From a phage, in the sequence record PZ674596.1: a stretch of DNA of 64,000 bases. One strand, written 5' to 3'. Positions 43,501 through 49,500 of this stretch are shown one piece after another (positions within the stretch are counted from its first letter, which is position 1; the number at the start of each line of letters is the position of its first letter). Position numbers: made by a program.

Positions 43501-46500
43501 CATGGTGCTCAAGCGGTCTTGAAAACCGTCCCATTGCGCAAGCGATGATGGTTCGATTCCATTACTCTCCGCCAGACACAGCGTTGAGCGGTTTGGCCTT
43601 TTAATCACCCAGATTAAGACTCCGCTAACATAAACCAGACCGCTCAACGCTGTGATAGACAATTACGGCAGACGTTCTTAACCATAGCTTGCTAACATCC
43701 TAGCAACACTTTTTTTTCAGCGCAAAATTCAAAGGGGCTTCGGCCCCTTTTTTGCAACTGAAAGAGTCAAGTCTACGAACTTTGTAGGAAGAAATAATGA
43801 CCAGCAAAGAGAACACACCACTAAAAGTCACCCCTGAACACATTGAACAACTCATTCAAAGTGAACATTATTTCACTGCATATGATGCCAGCCACGGGGA
43901 TAACTTCATCTCTGTTTACAATTCAAAAACAGATATCGACAAAGGTCATGAGTCGTTAAAACTCTTAACGTTCTGCGTTATGGTTCTCAAAAATGGATAT
44001 ACCGTAACGGGAAAATCTGCGTGCGTAAGACCAGAAATCTTCAACTTTGATGTTGGTCGCGAGTACGCTCGAAAAGATGCTATCGATCAAATCTGGCCCC
44101 TGGAAGGCTATCTCCTGAAGCAAAAGTGGCATGAGGCAAAGCAATGACGATCACTATCTACGGACGAGATAACTGCTCATACTGCAAACGTGCAGTCGAG
44201 CTGGCGAAGCAACTAAAGGGACATGGCTACGGTGATTATGAGTACATCGACATCACCACTGCCGGTATCGACAAGGAAAAACTTAGTGAAATTGTTGGTA
44301 AACCGGTAGAGACTATCCCCCAGGTGCTGATCGATGGCCAGCCGATTGGCGGATACACAGAGATGGCATCTTTCGTAAGTTTCTTATAAGTAAAAGCCAC
44401 ATCTTTGTACATATAGTACATATAACAAAAAAGGCCCATATGGGCCTTTTTCATAACTTCTAGCTAACCACTACAGTGGCTTAAAGACCACTTCACCCTT
44501 GCGTTCAGCTTCAGCTTTAGCAGTCATGAATCGTTTGATCATTTCGACTTTGCTAGCATGAATAGTTTTAAAATCAATCTTCCCTTTGTTTTGGGTAGTG
44601 TTGTGTTCGTATCGCATAGGAAGCTCCGTCATTTAAATAAGTTAGGCCACGCTCTTGTGTAAATCTCTTCACATATCTCTTGTATGTGGCCATCAGTTCT
44701 TCGCGTTCTGCCGCAAAGAATAAAATCTGTATGCCTTCATTGTCGGCAACTTTGAGCATTAAGTCAACTAAAGTACCGTAAAGGTATTGAAGTTCACCTA
44801 AAGTAAGATTAAAAGACCCTTCGGGTTTGGCAAATACGTTAATTGGCTCTTCCGCTCCAAGAGCGACATTCTGGAGCTGTTCTTGCTGCCTGTCAAGTTG
44901 AATCATGTCCACAAAACTAACGACAGATACACACAACCCATAAACATCAGCACCTAACATATTATGCATAGTTTCTGCGGCAACAGGATCTAAAGAAGGA
45001 GGGCAAAAGACTAAACGGTATCTAGCCTTACGAGCTTCATTGCCAGAGAAAACAAAGTCTATATCTAAATATGACAGATCACCCGGCAATGAAGCCAAAC
45101 CAGGTGTAACCAACTTATGCAAGTGCATCTGTCTCGAATCCCTCTTTATTAGTATAAGTTGTCTTATTGTACCCTACCAAACGTTTATATGCATTGTTAT
45201 GTATTATTTTGATTTTCAATATTACCTCCTAGAACGAAGGGTAGATTTCAAAAAACGCATCCTCAATGATTCCATACCTACTATGTATGGAATCATTACT
45301 GAAAATGAGTTACTTTTACTCTTGATCCTATAAGAATCTATGCCTAATATACTGTTTACTTATACAGTGAATCGGCGTAACTCGGTGATTGTCATATGAA
45401 AAATAGCTTTGACAGAGCACGCGCTGCGGAGAACACCTCAAAAGAGGCGATTGAGTATCTCGAAAGAGCATCTCAAATGCAGGCCGTTATGATCTCCCAG
45501 GTCAGCAATGACATGAGATTCTCGGACGCATTCATGTTATTCACTCGCTTATCTCTGCTGATAACCAGACGTCGGCCAGAGATCGCTGTTCATTGTATTT
45601 TGATACATGTTTTGCCGCACATTGCCGATGTAAAAGTAAGTGACATTAATAGGTTCATGGTGAACCAACTGGTCAACCCACTAATACTGGATGGCAAAAT
45701 TGTTATGGGCCGCCGCGTTTTCTCTCTGATGAAGCAGTTCCTTAGCTGGTGCGCCTTCCAGGGGATGATAGACGTGTCACCGTTAAACGATATGTCACTA
45801 AACAAAGTTGCCGGTGGCGCAAAGCCCACACCTCGCGAGCGGAAGCTGACCGACGCAGAGGTATGGGTGTTCTGGAATATATGGGACTACTTCAATGTGT
45901 GCGCTGGTACAAAATGGGCGGCCAGGCTGTGTCTTGTATCCGCAAGACGACCTGACGAAGTACTGCGGGCTAAAAAAAGTGAGTTCAATCTTAAGCGTGG
46001 GGTTTGGAATCAAGGCAAGAGGAACAAATCTGCCCGTGAGCATTCGCTGCCTTTAAGCACATTAATGCGCACATGTATTGAAGAGTTGTTCGAATACGGT
46101 AAAGGCAGCCAGTGGCTCGTGCCTTCGAATAAAAAAATCGGGAAAGACCTTCCTATGTCTAAAGTGGCAATAGCCCAGGCATTACGTCGTATTCTGGAAC
46201 GACCAGAACTGATGGAGCTTGAGCCATTTACACCCCGAGACTTGCGCCGTACTGCGCGTAGTTACTTCCCAGCATTAGGCATAAGCCAGGAGGTATCACG
46301 CAAAATCATGAACCACAGTCTTGAGGGGATAGATCGAGTCTACGACCGGCACGATTATATGGACGAGATGCGAGACGCCTTAGAAAGTTTCTCGACGTAC
46401 ATCGCATCAATCGTAGAGCAACCGGATTTAGACGAAATTGACCACAAATTCAAGGGAGATCGTCTATCAACAGAGCTTATTCGTGTAAATTTTTCATAGA

Positions 46501-49500
46501 GACTTTATAGCCTCAACAACCTTTTGTGATGCGCCTTTCTCTTTACCGAATCGCTCGTTATATGCAGCAAGAACCTGTTTTTCGTCCTCGTTAAGAGGAG
46601 CGGTGCCTTCTTTGTATAAAAATGCTGCGAGTTCAGGTTGGCGTTCTTCCAGCACCATCATCATAAGACGACTTGGCTCAATACCCAGCGCCAGCGCCAA
46701 CGGACGAACCTTATCGATAGGCAAAGGAATTTTGCCACTTTTAATTAAAGAAAGGTTGTTGGCATTTTTATAACCAATAAGTCTGGCTATTTGGGCCTGA
46801 CTCATAGGTGAGGATTCAATCAGCCCTGCGATAAAAGCAGCATAGCGACTTTCTATAAATTCAATCTTGTTGTCAGACATTGTTACAACCTTTGCGCGTT
46901 CAATTCTCACTGGTAAGTGCTTACCGATATTACATCAAAGGTTAGGGTTGTAAAGCTATTATCATTTTTTTCGATAGGCACTTAAAAGACCGGTTAAAGG
47001 CCATTGCACGGAGAAAAATTAGCCCAAAACAGGTAAGAAAATTAACTTGTATATGATATGAATGTATTCAGTATTGATATAAATTTTAGTAGTATTCCTT
47101 ACCATAGTATAAGTTAGAATGGATTGATTGAATGAACACCACTATTTCCAGCCTAATCGCTCTTGAGATCGGACACGTACAGAAATTAGCTGATGAGTGT
47201 GTAGCTGACATCCTCACCGATCTACCGAATGAGCAGATTCAGGTTGGTGTGAATGACACAACTGGCTTTATATTCGAATTTAACAACAAACGCTTCACGC
47301 TTCTCAATACCGGCTCCGGGTCTTTAGCCGTCAGAATCTGTTAACCCCTCTTCTCCCTGCGCGAATGGCTTAGTTCCCTGTTCGCGCAGTGCTACATTAA
47401 ACACACTAGTAAATAATTTGTTTTCATAACAAAGGATTAGCCATGTCTAAAAAACGTTCCATCAAAGAGGTTCAGGACTTCCGTGACAGTGTAAAACGAG
47501 TAGTCGCTCTCCTTTCAGGTAAAAACATCCCTGTTGCAGAACGAGGGGACGACGCTTATGTTCGCTATAACGATGATGGAGAGCCAATTCTCGTAAACAT
47601 CCCATCAATCCCGGATAACGCAACACCGGCATTGATGAATGCTGTGCGCGGATTTCTCGATCATGAGGTTGCTCACATTTTGTTTACCGATATTCGTGTG
47701 TCCAACAAAATGAGAGAAAAAGGACGCGTTCCTTCCTGGTCGCTATGGAATGCCTTAGAAGACGTGTTCATCGAGCGAAAAATGGGTCAGGTCTTTAACG
47801 GAACAAGACGTAATCTGATGGCAACTCAGCGCCTTATAATCGAAAAAGTCTTTAAACCAAAGGCTTCAGAGGCTATTGCTTATTGTGGCAAAGATCAGCG
47901 CGCGCTTTTTCTAAACTTCTTTCTCTGTCCGGTTGTAAGAGCCTGGGATGGCCAAGCACCGTTCGTAGATTTCATGGATGAATATTGGCCTGTCATTGAG
48001 AAACCAATTTCATTATTAAAAGAACATGGTATCGATGTGGCCGTGCGTAACATGTCTTGCACCGAGGATTGTGTAAAGGTGGCTGCGACCATAGCTAAGA
48101 TCCTCAAAGACACTGAAAGTGAAAGCAAAGGTAAGGAGTCAGCTCCGGGAAAAACTTCCGATCCTTCAGACGCTGACCAGACGGATGCCTCTGGAGAAAA
48201 CAATGAAGACAACGAAGATCATGAGACACTCTCAGTGTTAGATAATCACAAATCTATCAAATCAGAATCACATAGTAAGTACAAACATGATAATAACGAC
48301 AGTGATGATTCAGATAATTCTGAATCATCAGAAACAATATTCGATGATACAGAAAATGATAAAGAGGTATCAGATTCTGATGCTTCTGATAACGCGGCGT
48401 CAGAATCATTAACCGCTGACCACGAAAAAAGAAAAACGACAGAAGACGGCTCTTCAGATATCCCAACTCCGTCAAAAATGAGTCTGGAAGAGGCTTTAGA
48501 GGAGCTGGATAGCATAGAAGATGAAGTCGGAGGCATGACAGAAGATGCTCTATCCGAAACGATTAAAAGCGAGTTAACAGAAAGCTCGAAAAGCGAATAC
48601 AGGCCATACAATCGCTCATACGACTTCATCGGCTCGATTGATCAGGCAGAAGCCCATATCAAACGGCTTATTAAAACATTCTCCGATATTGATTTGGGAG
48701 GATATCCAATCAGCCGCTATCGCATCGTTCCTGAAGGCAACCAGCTCTTCGACAAATATATTGAAAAGCATCTTTCGTCAGGTGTTTCGTCGACGCTGGC
48801 AAAAGACCTGGAGCGAGCAATAGCAAGCAGAAACAGAGTTCAGTTTATACCGGGCCAGCGTCGGGGGCGCATTCATGGTTCTAGTATCTACAGATTAGCA
48901 ATGAATGATGCTCGCGTGTTTCGTAAAAAAGAAGAATCTAAAGCCGTTAACGCCTGTGTTCAACAAGTGATTGATTTATCAGGTTCAATGAGTGGTATAA
49001 CGATACAATTGGCTCTTGCAAGTGCATATACCATCGCCGATGCCCTTGATCGAATAAATGTTCCCAACATTATCACCGGCTTCACTACATTTGGTAGTCA
49101 TATGGCGGCAGGAGAACTTAAGGCTGTCAAGTATGAGTTCTCTCGCTTTGAATCTTTAATGCTACCTATCATCAAAAATTGGAATGAAAAGGTAAATTCT
49201 CGCGAAGTTCGCTCACGTATGGGGTGCGTAGGCTACACATTCCCACTTCTTAATAACGTGGATGGTGAAAGCATAGCCAGCCTTGCATCGTTATTTTCCG
49301 GTCGCTTGGAGGACAGGAAGATCATGCTTGTTCTGAGTGATGGCGCGCCGTGGGCTGTTGGGAGAGGTTTTGACGCTCATTTGCGTTCAGTTGCGAAGCA
49401 AATTGAAACGCAGACTGATATTGATTTGATGGCAATTGGCATCATGACTGACGCACCGGAGAGATTTTACTCAAATCATGCCCTGGTAACGAGCGTTGAT

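Follow-up and report, generated by a model that had tools for sequence, protein, structure and literature searches.

A putative lysogeny and plasmid-maintenance module of an SSU5-like phage-plasmid with a lox-like candidate site and a single cargo slot

We analysed a window of 64,000 nucleotides (nt) from the phage sequence record PZ674596.1 (the whole stretch, to which all positions refer unless another sequence is named), and in particular the genes that lie between a cluster of transfer RNA (tRNA) genes and the replication genes cobT, cobS and dnaE. These genes encode a Gp49 family protein, a glutaredoxin, the two proteins of a small cassette, a tyrosine recombinase (Int) and an XRE-type regulator. 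We lean towards reading them as a module for lysogeny and plasmid maintenance in an SSU5-like phage-plasmid, with a one-slot cargo site at the left edge of the module. This reading builds on the gene content and its conservation, on the architecture of a palindromic site beside the recombinase gene, on a location exclusively on plasmids and on published expression data.

In the mechanism that we propose, gp49 and grx form a conserved, translationally coupled pair that would end at a bidirectional terminator. The cargo slot would extend from this terminator to the control region of the recombinase gene, and would here be occupied by a self-contained, leftward two-gene cassette with its own promoter. 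The recombinase would act on a 13-7-13 palindrome upstream of its promoter and thereby resolve plasmid multimers, as Cre does at loxP; possibly it would also circularise incoming genomes, and chromosomal integration would not be among its roles. A LexA box overlaps the promoter of int, so that synthesis of the recombinase would rise with DNA damage. The convergent XRE gene would encode the prophage repressor, and the divergent 70-aa gene would head the early replication block.

A conserved module with one variable segment

The replicon is an SSU5-like phage-plasmid of Escherichia coli with 98% identity to pLF82 (= Escherichia phage Cyrano), and ~3.5 kb around the module are 98-99.8% identical to ~110-kb E. 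coli plasmids and to Cyrano; the plasmid replicon proposed in a preliminary description of this DNA is thus that of a plasmid-borne phage. The gene content given there was reproduced for every open reading frame (ORF), at the same positions. The features of the module, with protein lengths in amino acids (aa), are as follows.

43797-44147, + strand: gp49, Gp49/Sf6-gp66 family gene, 116 aa (PF13876, E 3e-29, 101.6 bits versus a cut-off of 27; phrog_322, E 2e-45)
44144-44389, + strand: grx, GrxA-type glutaredoxin, 81 aa (PF00462, 42.3 bits versus 22.9; CSYC motif read in the sequence)
44428-44451: putative bidirectional terminator hairpin between grx and the cassette, judged from the inverted repeat, a perfect 12+12 palindrome AAAAAGGCCCAT/ATGGGCCTTTTT
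44471-44617, - strand: cassette gene 2, 48-aa basic protein, pI 9.9 (phrog_2140, E 4e-14)
44574-45128, - strand: cassette gene 1, 184-aa acidic protein, pI 5.1, orphan family that gave no Pfam match and has a weak GNAT-like fold
45151-45180, - strand: promoter-like site TTGGTA-18-TATACT ahead of the 184-aa gene, predicted by a consensus scan
45243-45256: semi-conserved A-tract AGATTTCAAAAAAC immediately to the left of the palindrome, from a comparison of 51 distinct left flanks
45265-45297: perfect 13-7-13 inverted repeat AATGATTCCATAC-CTACTAT-GTATGGAATCATT, candidate core site of the recombinase, ~100 nt upstream of int
45322-45350, + strand: putative int promoter TTGATC-17-TAATAT, read from the sequence, with a right flank conserved across lineages
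45352-45367: LexA (SOS) box CTGTTTACTTATACAG, of the form CTGT-N8-ACAG, beginning 1 nt past the -10 hexamer
45396-46499, + strand: int, tyrosine recombinase, 367 aa (PF00589, 39.4 bits versus 27.1)
46494-46910, - strand: XRE-type helix-turn-helix (HTH) regulator, 138 aa, putative prophage repressor (phrog_8 'transcriptional regulator', E 5e-12)
46912-46925: GGTAAG-TG-CTTACC dyad at the XRE promoter, possible operator, kept in a Klebsiella relative (L012)
47132-47344, + strand: gene for an acidic protein of 70 aa, transcribed divergently to the XRE gene; first of the cobT-cobS-dnaE block (phrog_2627, E 3e-40)

The coupling of the 116-aa gene to the glutaredoxin gene, proposed earlier, is seen in the 4 nt ATGA shared by the stop codon of gp49 and the start codon of grx. 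In relatives, the proteins of the module are annotated as Gp49 family protein, GrxA glutaredoxin, hypothetical protein, site-specific integrase and transcriptional regulator. For the XRE protein, the Pfam matches to HTH_3/HTH_19 were under the cut-off (18.6 bits versus 30.2), and the start of its gene as annotated in relatives corresponds to position 46880.

The preliminary description took the region for a mosaic accessory island. Among close relatives, this applies to ~44362-45240 only, whereas gp49, grx, int and the genes for the XRE regulator and the 70-aa protein are kept, also across the relatives from E. coli, Klebsiella, Enterobacter, Salmonella (pHCM2) and Yersinia (pMT1). We read the block not as a loose mosaic but as a conserved lysogeny module of recombinase, convergent repressor and divergent small gene, in which grx and the palindrome bound a single, discrete slot for cargo. 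Lysogens express the XRE gene, which diverges from the 70aa-cobT-cobS-dnaE block: its Cyrano counterpart CYRAN_45 is listed as 'putative repressor' and is transcribed 10-fold over background in lysogens, and the counterpart of the 70-aa gene, CYRAN_46, rises ~88-fold in macrophages (PMC9928086). Two more GGTAAG/CTTACC copies lie in the intergenic region between the XRE and 70-aa genes, at 47032-47037 and 47098-47103; together with the dyad at the XRE promoter, they may be operators of the repressor.

Phage SSU5 (NC_018843, ~12600-12760) is without the stretch from phoH through gp49, grx, int and the XRE gene to the 70-aa gene, and its tRNA-Asn gene abuts cobT. Since Enterobacter plasmids that are 99% identical to SSU5 on either side of this junction carry the complete module, and since the junction itself was absent from all 72,556 plasmids searched, we regard SSU5 as a recent deletion derivative, and the module would therefore be dispensable for phage production. 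SSU5, the type phage of the group, is also without the putative repressor.

A palindrome at a fixed position upstream of the recombinase gene

The preliminary description mentioned no attachment-site repeat. This did not stand: a search for target repeats of the recombinase found the palindrome at 45265-45297, which occurs once in the window and for which 0 of 100 shuffles gave a match. A pattern search with two 12-nt arms and any 7-nt spacer retrieved 7 genome contigs and 101 viral contigs (108 loci), and an Int homologue (57-100% identity) was present at a fixed distance in all 105 of these loci with enough flank. The distance between the centre of the palindrome and the ATG of int was 112-116 nt, and 60-62 nt in distant lineages. 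Since this search fixes the arms by construction, a second set of 80 int loci was gathered by Int peptides alone, independently of the arm pattern. The exact palindrome was located within 200 nt of int in 79 of these 80 loci; in the sole exception (L193, IMGVR_UViG_3300045988_154041), ~2 kb of inserted DNA separates the two. At least 12 versions of the spacer were found between constant arms, the only arm change being a symmetric A-to-G exchange at the outermost position in one lineage at 59% identity, whose upstream half-site (see below) has the same change.

The PF00589 match of Int spans residues 172-320, and R184/R185, K211, R284 and Y316 are invariant in an alignment of 11 lineages (residues assigned by eye against the usual motifs). 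No Pfam match to an arm-binding domain was obtained for Int, no clustered direct (arm-type) repeats were found around the palindrome, and a sequence comparison of Int to the chains of the PDB, Cre included, gave no match at E 0.01 or better. In the literature, we found no functional statement on the recombinase of pLF82, pHCM2 or pMT1.

The cargo slot left of the palindrome

In an alignment with pCPE35, ~44362-45240 of the window is replaced by ~110 nt. This variable segment contains the 3' end of grx (its last ~27 nt, as the alignment breaks at ~44362), the terminator, the 48-aa gene and the 184-aa gene. Among the int-oriented loci, the distance between grx and the palindrome was 79-82 nt, i.e. 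the slot was empty, in 28 of the 34 loci of the E. coli lineage, and 786-2368 nt elsewhere. The 184-aa/48-aa cassette also occupies the slot in three other Int lineages; in further ones it holds a 202-aa gene plus a YafO toxin gene (PF13957, E 3e-22), a gene for a HEPN/Toprim protein (PF18871, E 8e-44) or a 329-aa gene. On Y. pestis pMT1 (L204, NC_004835), the slot contains the F1 capsule operon caf1R-caf1M-caf1A-caf1 (1164-6292 of that plasmid) directly to the left of the palindrome (6922), which is followed on its right by int, the XRE gene, the 70-aa gene, cobT, cobS and dnaE. The caf1 operon of pMT1 stands in place of half-site 2, the tRNA genes, phoH, gp49 and grx.

Other slot cassettes (L110, L109, L057 and L050) consist of a gene for 178-189 aa and a downstream gene that overlaps its 3' end in another frame. 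The large proteins of these cassettes share with the 184-aa family a C-terminal pattern F-x-A-A...Y...G...Y-V/A-V/I-x-T; homology of the 184-aa family to the ~180-aa proteins was rejected as not significant (hhalign probability < 1%).

Comparison of the 51 left flanks revealed that an A-tract ~10-22 nt to the left of the palindrome is retained in most cargo classes and that the cargo junctions are located ~25 nt to the left of the palindrome, outside its spacer. Because of these two features, capture or exchange of cargo by a site-specific crossover within the palindrome was rejected.

A two-gene cassette with an overlapping small gene

The 48-aa ORF begins with MRYEHNTTQNKGK, and GGAG lies 6 nt upstream of its ATG. 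Read in the +1 frame, it shares 44 nt with the 184-aa gene, and because of this overlap the two cassette genes are probably translationally coupled. The small ORF carries no annotation in Cyrano or p15ODDR. The match of its product to Pfam DUF5486 (E 4e-4, 20.6 bits) was under the cut-off of 27; two homologues of the protein have a precomputed match to PF17588. A literature search on DUF5486 returned nothing.

The small gene is intact in 8 diverged lineages, always in +1 relative to the 184-aa gene whose 3' end it overlaps, and the methionine of its MRYE start is conserved. Where the large protein is 67-87% identical, the small one is 81-98% identical, and the substitutions in the non-overlapping part of the small gene are mostly at third codon positions (e.g. 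2/1/13 at the three positions between the window and L008), from which it follows that this is a real, protein-coding gene under purifying selection. The small ORF with a good ribosome-binding site that the preliminary description had placed over the 3' end of the 184-aa gene is thus confirmed with the start proposed there, and the lack of conservation that would have spoken against it was not seen.

Homologues of the 184-aa protein form 29 clusters at 90% identity, all from Enterobacterales, with 19 representatives among 1.84 billion proteins; among 50,697 records of a phage collection, the cassette was found in Cyrano only. Wherever the context could be read, a gene for 47-53 aa follows in the +1 frame with a 3'-end overlap of 23-59 nt. 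These contexts comprise a chromosomal site in Xenorhabdus next to pckA, one in Yersinia intermedia flanked by tmcA and an esterase gene, the integrase-side end of a lambdoid prophage, one more contig and other phage-plasmid (Int) lineages. The layout of an adjacent, co-oriented, overlapping and portable pair is kept in 8 lineages, across genomic contexts of four kinds.

The Cyrano counterpart of the 184-aa gene, CYRAN_43, was reported at 723-fold over the local prophage background in lysogens of LF82, a value that among the prophage genes of LF82 only hokD exceeds, with log2 values of 12-15 in all five conditions (PMC9928086). Since genes of the toxin or defence type occupy the slot in some of the other lineages, we infer that the cassette may be a lysogenic-conversion module of the toxin-antitoxin (TA), abortive-infection or exclusion kind.

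Several results weigh against this assignment. The AlphaFold model of the 184-aa protein (pLDDT 86) matched the GNAT superfamily weakly (TM < 0.4), the acetyl-CoA motif (R/Q-x-x-G-x-G/A) is not present in the protein, whose best-conserved loop PPSLDPVAAE differs from it, and the published LF82 read counts may not be strand-specific. The best viral structure matches were uncharacterised proteins, and a sequence search of the PDB gave noise only. Furthermore, Pfam, NCBIfam and PADLOC returned no toxin, antitoxin or defence match for either cassette protein. This last result would also fit a moron for host physiology, i.e. an enzyme with a small cofactor or regulator, as would the capsule operon in the slot of pMT1 and the occurrence of the cassette in Yersinia and Xenorhabdus as a lone islet that is flanked by housekeeping genes and has no genes for mobility or defence beside it. 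However, an overlapping pair of an acidic large and a basic small protein, its extreme constitutive expression and slot-mates such as YafO and HEPN/Toprim fit toxin or defence better, and the other slot cassettes repeat the arrangement of a ~180-aa gene with an overlapping small gene. We therefore consider the host-physiology moron possible, though the less probable of the two.

Dispersed copies of the palindrome arm

Lone copies of the palindrome arm, here called half-sites, were detected on both sides of the module, and a degenerate one within int.

41659-41672, + strand: half-site 1 ATGATTCCATACAT, which doubles as the start (codon) of a 50-aa membrane-type ORF
42671-42684, + strand: half-site 2 ATGATTCCATACAT, non-coding, ~1.0 kb to the right of half-site 1
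46002-46013, - strand: degenerate copy TTGATTCCAAAC of an internal half-site, which reads TTGATTCCATACAT in other lineages
51314-51327, - strand: half-site in the coding sequence of dnaE, in inverted orientation

The 14-mer ATGATTCCATACAT is identical to the arm of the palindrome, and its lone copies are located around int only, all pointing to the palindrome. In the whole 108-kb genome of Cyrano, the 12-mer ATGATTCCATAC occurs 5 times, all within 9.2 kb: two copies are the palindrome arms, two lie on the plus strand to the left (~1.0 kb apart) and one lies on the minus strand in dnaE, ~6 kb to the right. A model of genome-wide operators like those of P1 C1 was rejected on these numbers. This arrangement recurs throughout the lineages: exactly two left copies were present in 47 of 55 loci and the dnaE copy in 68 of 72; left copies were always on the plus and right copies always on the minus strand. 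With 0 exceptions to this orientation in 80 loci, shufflon-like inversion was rejected as well. When 55 unique 5' ends of dnaE were aligned via the protein and not via the motif, the sole invariant run of at least 8 nt within the first 450 nt was TGTATGGAATCATT; third codon positions within the 14-mer were 96-100% conserved versus 72% overall, i.e. the constraint acts at the level of DNA. The half-sites may be binding sites for monomers of Int or of another protein.

These and some further findings weigh against the palindrome as a recombination site. Lone half-sites at a distance of 1-7 kb, including one in dnaE, are not predicted by a simple lox model and would fit operators of a regulator, and a palindrome upstream of a promoter could itself be an operator. 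The cargo junctions, as described above, are outside the spacer. The catalytic pocket of Int is non-canonical, with Arg281 at the position of the first catalytic His in all 11 lineages and His307, or Gln in the 57-61% lineages, at the second. Last, the 80 loci contained no recombination products, i.e. no split or hybrid sites, inversions or orientation exceptions. It is mainly on account of the dispersed arm copies that we hold the resolvase model with no more than moderate confidence.

The palindrome and the 14-mers could alternatively be operators of a regulator, be it the XRE protein, a 71-aa protein encoded at 41447-41662, just ahead of half-site 1, or another protein of the backbone, with the target of the recombinase lying elsewhere or having been lost. 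The DNA-level constraint on the lone half-sites at 41659, 42671 and 51314-51327 speaks for operators, as do the position of the palindrome ~25 nt upstream of the -35 hexamer of the int promoter, the cargo junctions and the persistence of half-sites in SSU5, which has no int. Yet the last point is little informative on a dependence on Int, since SSU5 is a recent deletion derivative, ~99% identical across the junction to int-bearing plasmids, and its half-site 2 has a mismatch already. Moreover, the palindrome was found only beside int in all 105 pattern-found loci with enough flank, the sites are invariant although the XRE protein goes down to 43-65% identity, and the XRE promoter has a different dyad. 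Arms of 13 nt around a variable, asymmetric spacer of 7 nt are typical of the core sites of tyrosine recombinases, which also counts against operators. Taken together, we regard the operator explanation as doubtful.

A LexA box at the int promoter

Of the 8 spacer bases in the LexA box at 45352-45367, 7 are A or T, and the box is the sole CTGT-N8-ACAG in the window. It is present at int in 76 of the 80 int loci, and also in the 59% lineage. Cyrano has two good LexA boxes, this one and TACTGTATGTGTATACAGTA at 89277-89292 of its genome, 34 nt ahead of CYRAN_98, a gene for a LexA-like S24 peptidase. In macrophage-internalised LF82, int and CYRAN_98 rise together, 26-fold and 32-fold, respectively (PMC9928086), and the published induction of Cyrano by ciprofloxacin is 39-fold. 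The 3' ends of int and the convergent XRE gene overlap by 6 nt in the window and by 6-9 nt in every lineage examined (E. coli, Klebsiella, pHCM2 and pMT1), and therefore transcription of int may run antisense into the repressor gene. The literature searched contained no description of a lysogeny switch or of plasmid multimer control for SSU5-like elements.

SOS-induced transcription of int could thus serve mainly as a switch, in which antisense RNA lowers the amount of repressor and leads to induction, with the recombinase activity being secondary. Apart from the overlap, this would agree with an XRE protein that has no S24 self-cleavage domain in a phage, Cyrano, that is nevertheless inducible by ciprofloxacin, and with the placement of one of the two good LexA boxes of Cyrano at the int promoter. 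However, the XRE transcripts rise, and do not fall, in macrophages, the second LexA-boxed gene could be the inducer, and the idea is deduced purely from geometry, so that we judge it improbable. We view with equal reserve a more far-reaching version, in which TGATTCCATAC(AT) defines a long-range network centred on the recombinase: the palindrome would be the dimer site, and the lone copies would be landing sites of monomers that gate or steer recombination, replication or transcription across the lysogeny region. In this version, LexA-released transcription of int into the repressor gene would additionally serve SSU5-like phage-plasmids, pMT1 and pHCM2 among them, as their induction switch.

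Location of the recombinase gene on plasmids

The int-XRE region was found at 254 places in 252 of 5,426 complete E. coli genomes; none of these places was chromosomal, and all 7 palindrome matches in the genome collection were on contigs of 12-169 kb. Neither a XerCD-type (cer/dif-like) site on Cyrano nor another site-specific recombinase in its annotation was found. Since none of the 254 places is chromosomal, a resolvase of the Cre/lox type is favoured over an integrase, and lox-like resolution or cyclisation is the best reading of the recombinase, with the recombination itself proposed from the sequence. The preliminary description had already suspected that the recombinase is not a chromosomal integrase, and this is supported by the 254 plasmid places, the adjoining lox-like palindrome and the lack of a XerCD-type site on Cyrano; integration at a tRNA gene, which it had named as counter-evidence, was not encountered in E. 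coli.

That the recombinase is a true integrase and the element alternates between plasmid and chromosome, e.g. at a tRNA gene, is very unlikely: the annotation as 'site-specific integrase', the prophage integrases as nearest non-SSU5 relatives of Int (25-34% identity), a review stating that some phage-plasmids alternate between states and the adjoining tRNA genes are outweighed by the locations just given, by the symmetric palindrome as target, by an Int and flanks that show neither the arm-binding domain nor the arm-type repeats of lambda/P4-type integrases, and by annotations in which no excisionase appears.

Homologues of int at ~79% identity were also seen on larger plasmids of 131-324 kb (E. 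coli genome matches H149-H153), on which the palindrome appears intact; these plasmids are possibly cointegrates of the phage-plasmid with another plasmid.

Surroundings of the module

Two further features are located to the left of the module.

39659-40594: blaCTX-M, CTX-M family beta-lactamase gene (627 bits versus a cut-off of 570)
42877-43574, + strand: tRNA cluster of four genes, Asn, Tyr, Thr and Ser (ARAGORN, Rfam)

The beta-lactamase gene lies ~1 kb to the left of half-site 1, with a low-GC kilobase before it (38001-39000, 33% GC) and a high-GC kilobase after it; pCPE35 has blaCMY-2 at a similar position. Cyrano has tRNA genes for Asn, Thr and Ser only, close together, and the window shows in addition tRNA-Tyr and a spacer of 364 nt (43124-43487) between tRNA-Thr and tRNA-Ser, in which inverted repeats of 23 nt are present at 43262-43284 and 43324-43346. 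Apart from the tRNAs, no Rfam-type RNA families were found in 41-52 kb of the window.

Comparison to known systems

The closest parallel to the recombinase and its candidate site is Cre/loxP of phage P1, which also belongs to a phage living as a plasmid and combines one tyrosine recombinase with a simple site close upstream, made of 13-nt inverted arms and a short asymmetric spacer. By analogy, the expected roles would be multimer resolution and cyclisation, and neither system integrates into the chromosome. In contrast to Cre/loxP, Int has no detectable sequence similarity to Cre, the spacer has 7 instead of 8 nt, an Arg takes the place of the first catalytic His, a LexA box lies over the promoter and lone arm copies are spread over ~10 kb. 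To judge from the sequence, the recombinase would at most work like Cre/loxP and is not a member of that system.

ResD/rfsF of plasmid F and TnpI/IRS of Tn4430 are tyrosine-recombinase systems for the resolution of multimers or cointegrates, with a site just upstream of the gene. The system described here resembles them in having its own site immediately before the recombinase gene and in the lack of an arm-binding domain, but their accessory motifs are within ~100 bp of the core, whereas the arm copies here are 1-7 kb off and in or at the starts of genes. The lone 14-mers resemble the one-armed sfx sites recognised by Rci of R64 (PMC4176322). Unlike at sfx, no inversion variants were found in 80 loci, the 7 nt past the arm differ between half-sites of one genome, and one half-site is inside dnaE, where an inversion would destroy the gene.

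The cassette is similar to morons and type II TA pairs in being a compact unit that has a promoter and a terminator of its own and occupies a fixed hot spot, with high expression in the prophage, two overlapping genes, and a YafO pair and a HEPN/Toprim gene as slot-mates. It differs from them in that its proteins are outside the known families, the small gene, of 48 aa, is the downstream one and the family is tiny. With regard to type II TA systems with GNAT toxins (TacT/AtaT/KacT), a coupled pair is present, whereas neither the toxin profile nor the acetyl-CoA loop was recovered.

Some temperate phages have SOS boxes before genes of the antirepressor type. The int promoter is comparable to such LexA-regulated prophage genes with regard to the CTGT-N8-ACAG by the -10 of a prophage gene and the induction of the phage by ciprofloxacin, but the boxed gene here encodes a recombinase, convergent with the repressor gene, and no antirepressor is recognisable.

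The module is thus made of parts of known kinds, namely a recombinase with an adjoining simple site, a repressor, a hot spot for morons and a cassette of two genes. Its unusual features are the LexA control suggested by the box at int, the Arg in the catalytic pocket, the half-sites with their fixed orientation and long range, and an orphan cassette whose overlapping gene had escaped annotation.

Resistance genes are carried by phage-plasmids of the SSU5 type, which occur commonly in E. coli, Klebsiella, Enterobacter, Salmonella Typhi (pHCM2) and Y. pestis (pMT1). For this group, our analysis supplies a candidate site for recombination, a recombinase promoter with a LexA box, a putative repressor gene convergent with int and a cargo slot whose bounds are precisely defined. 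Should the recombinase act on the 33-nt palindrome with a free choice of spacer, the pair would be a candidate for a new orthogonal lox-like tool. The slot holds the F1 capsule operon in the plague plasmid, and in the phage-plasmid described here a cassette from an almost unstudied family, one gene of which has the highest expression in the prophage.

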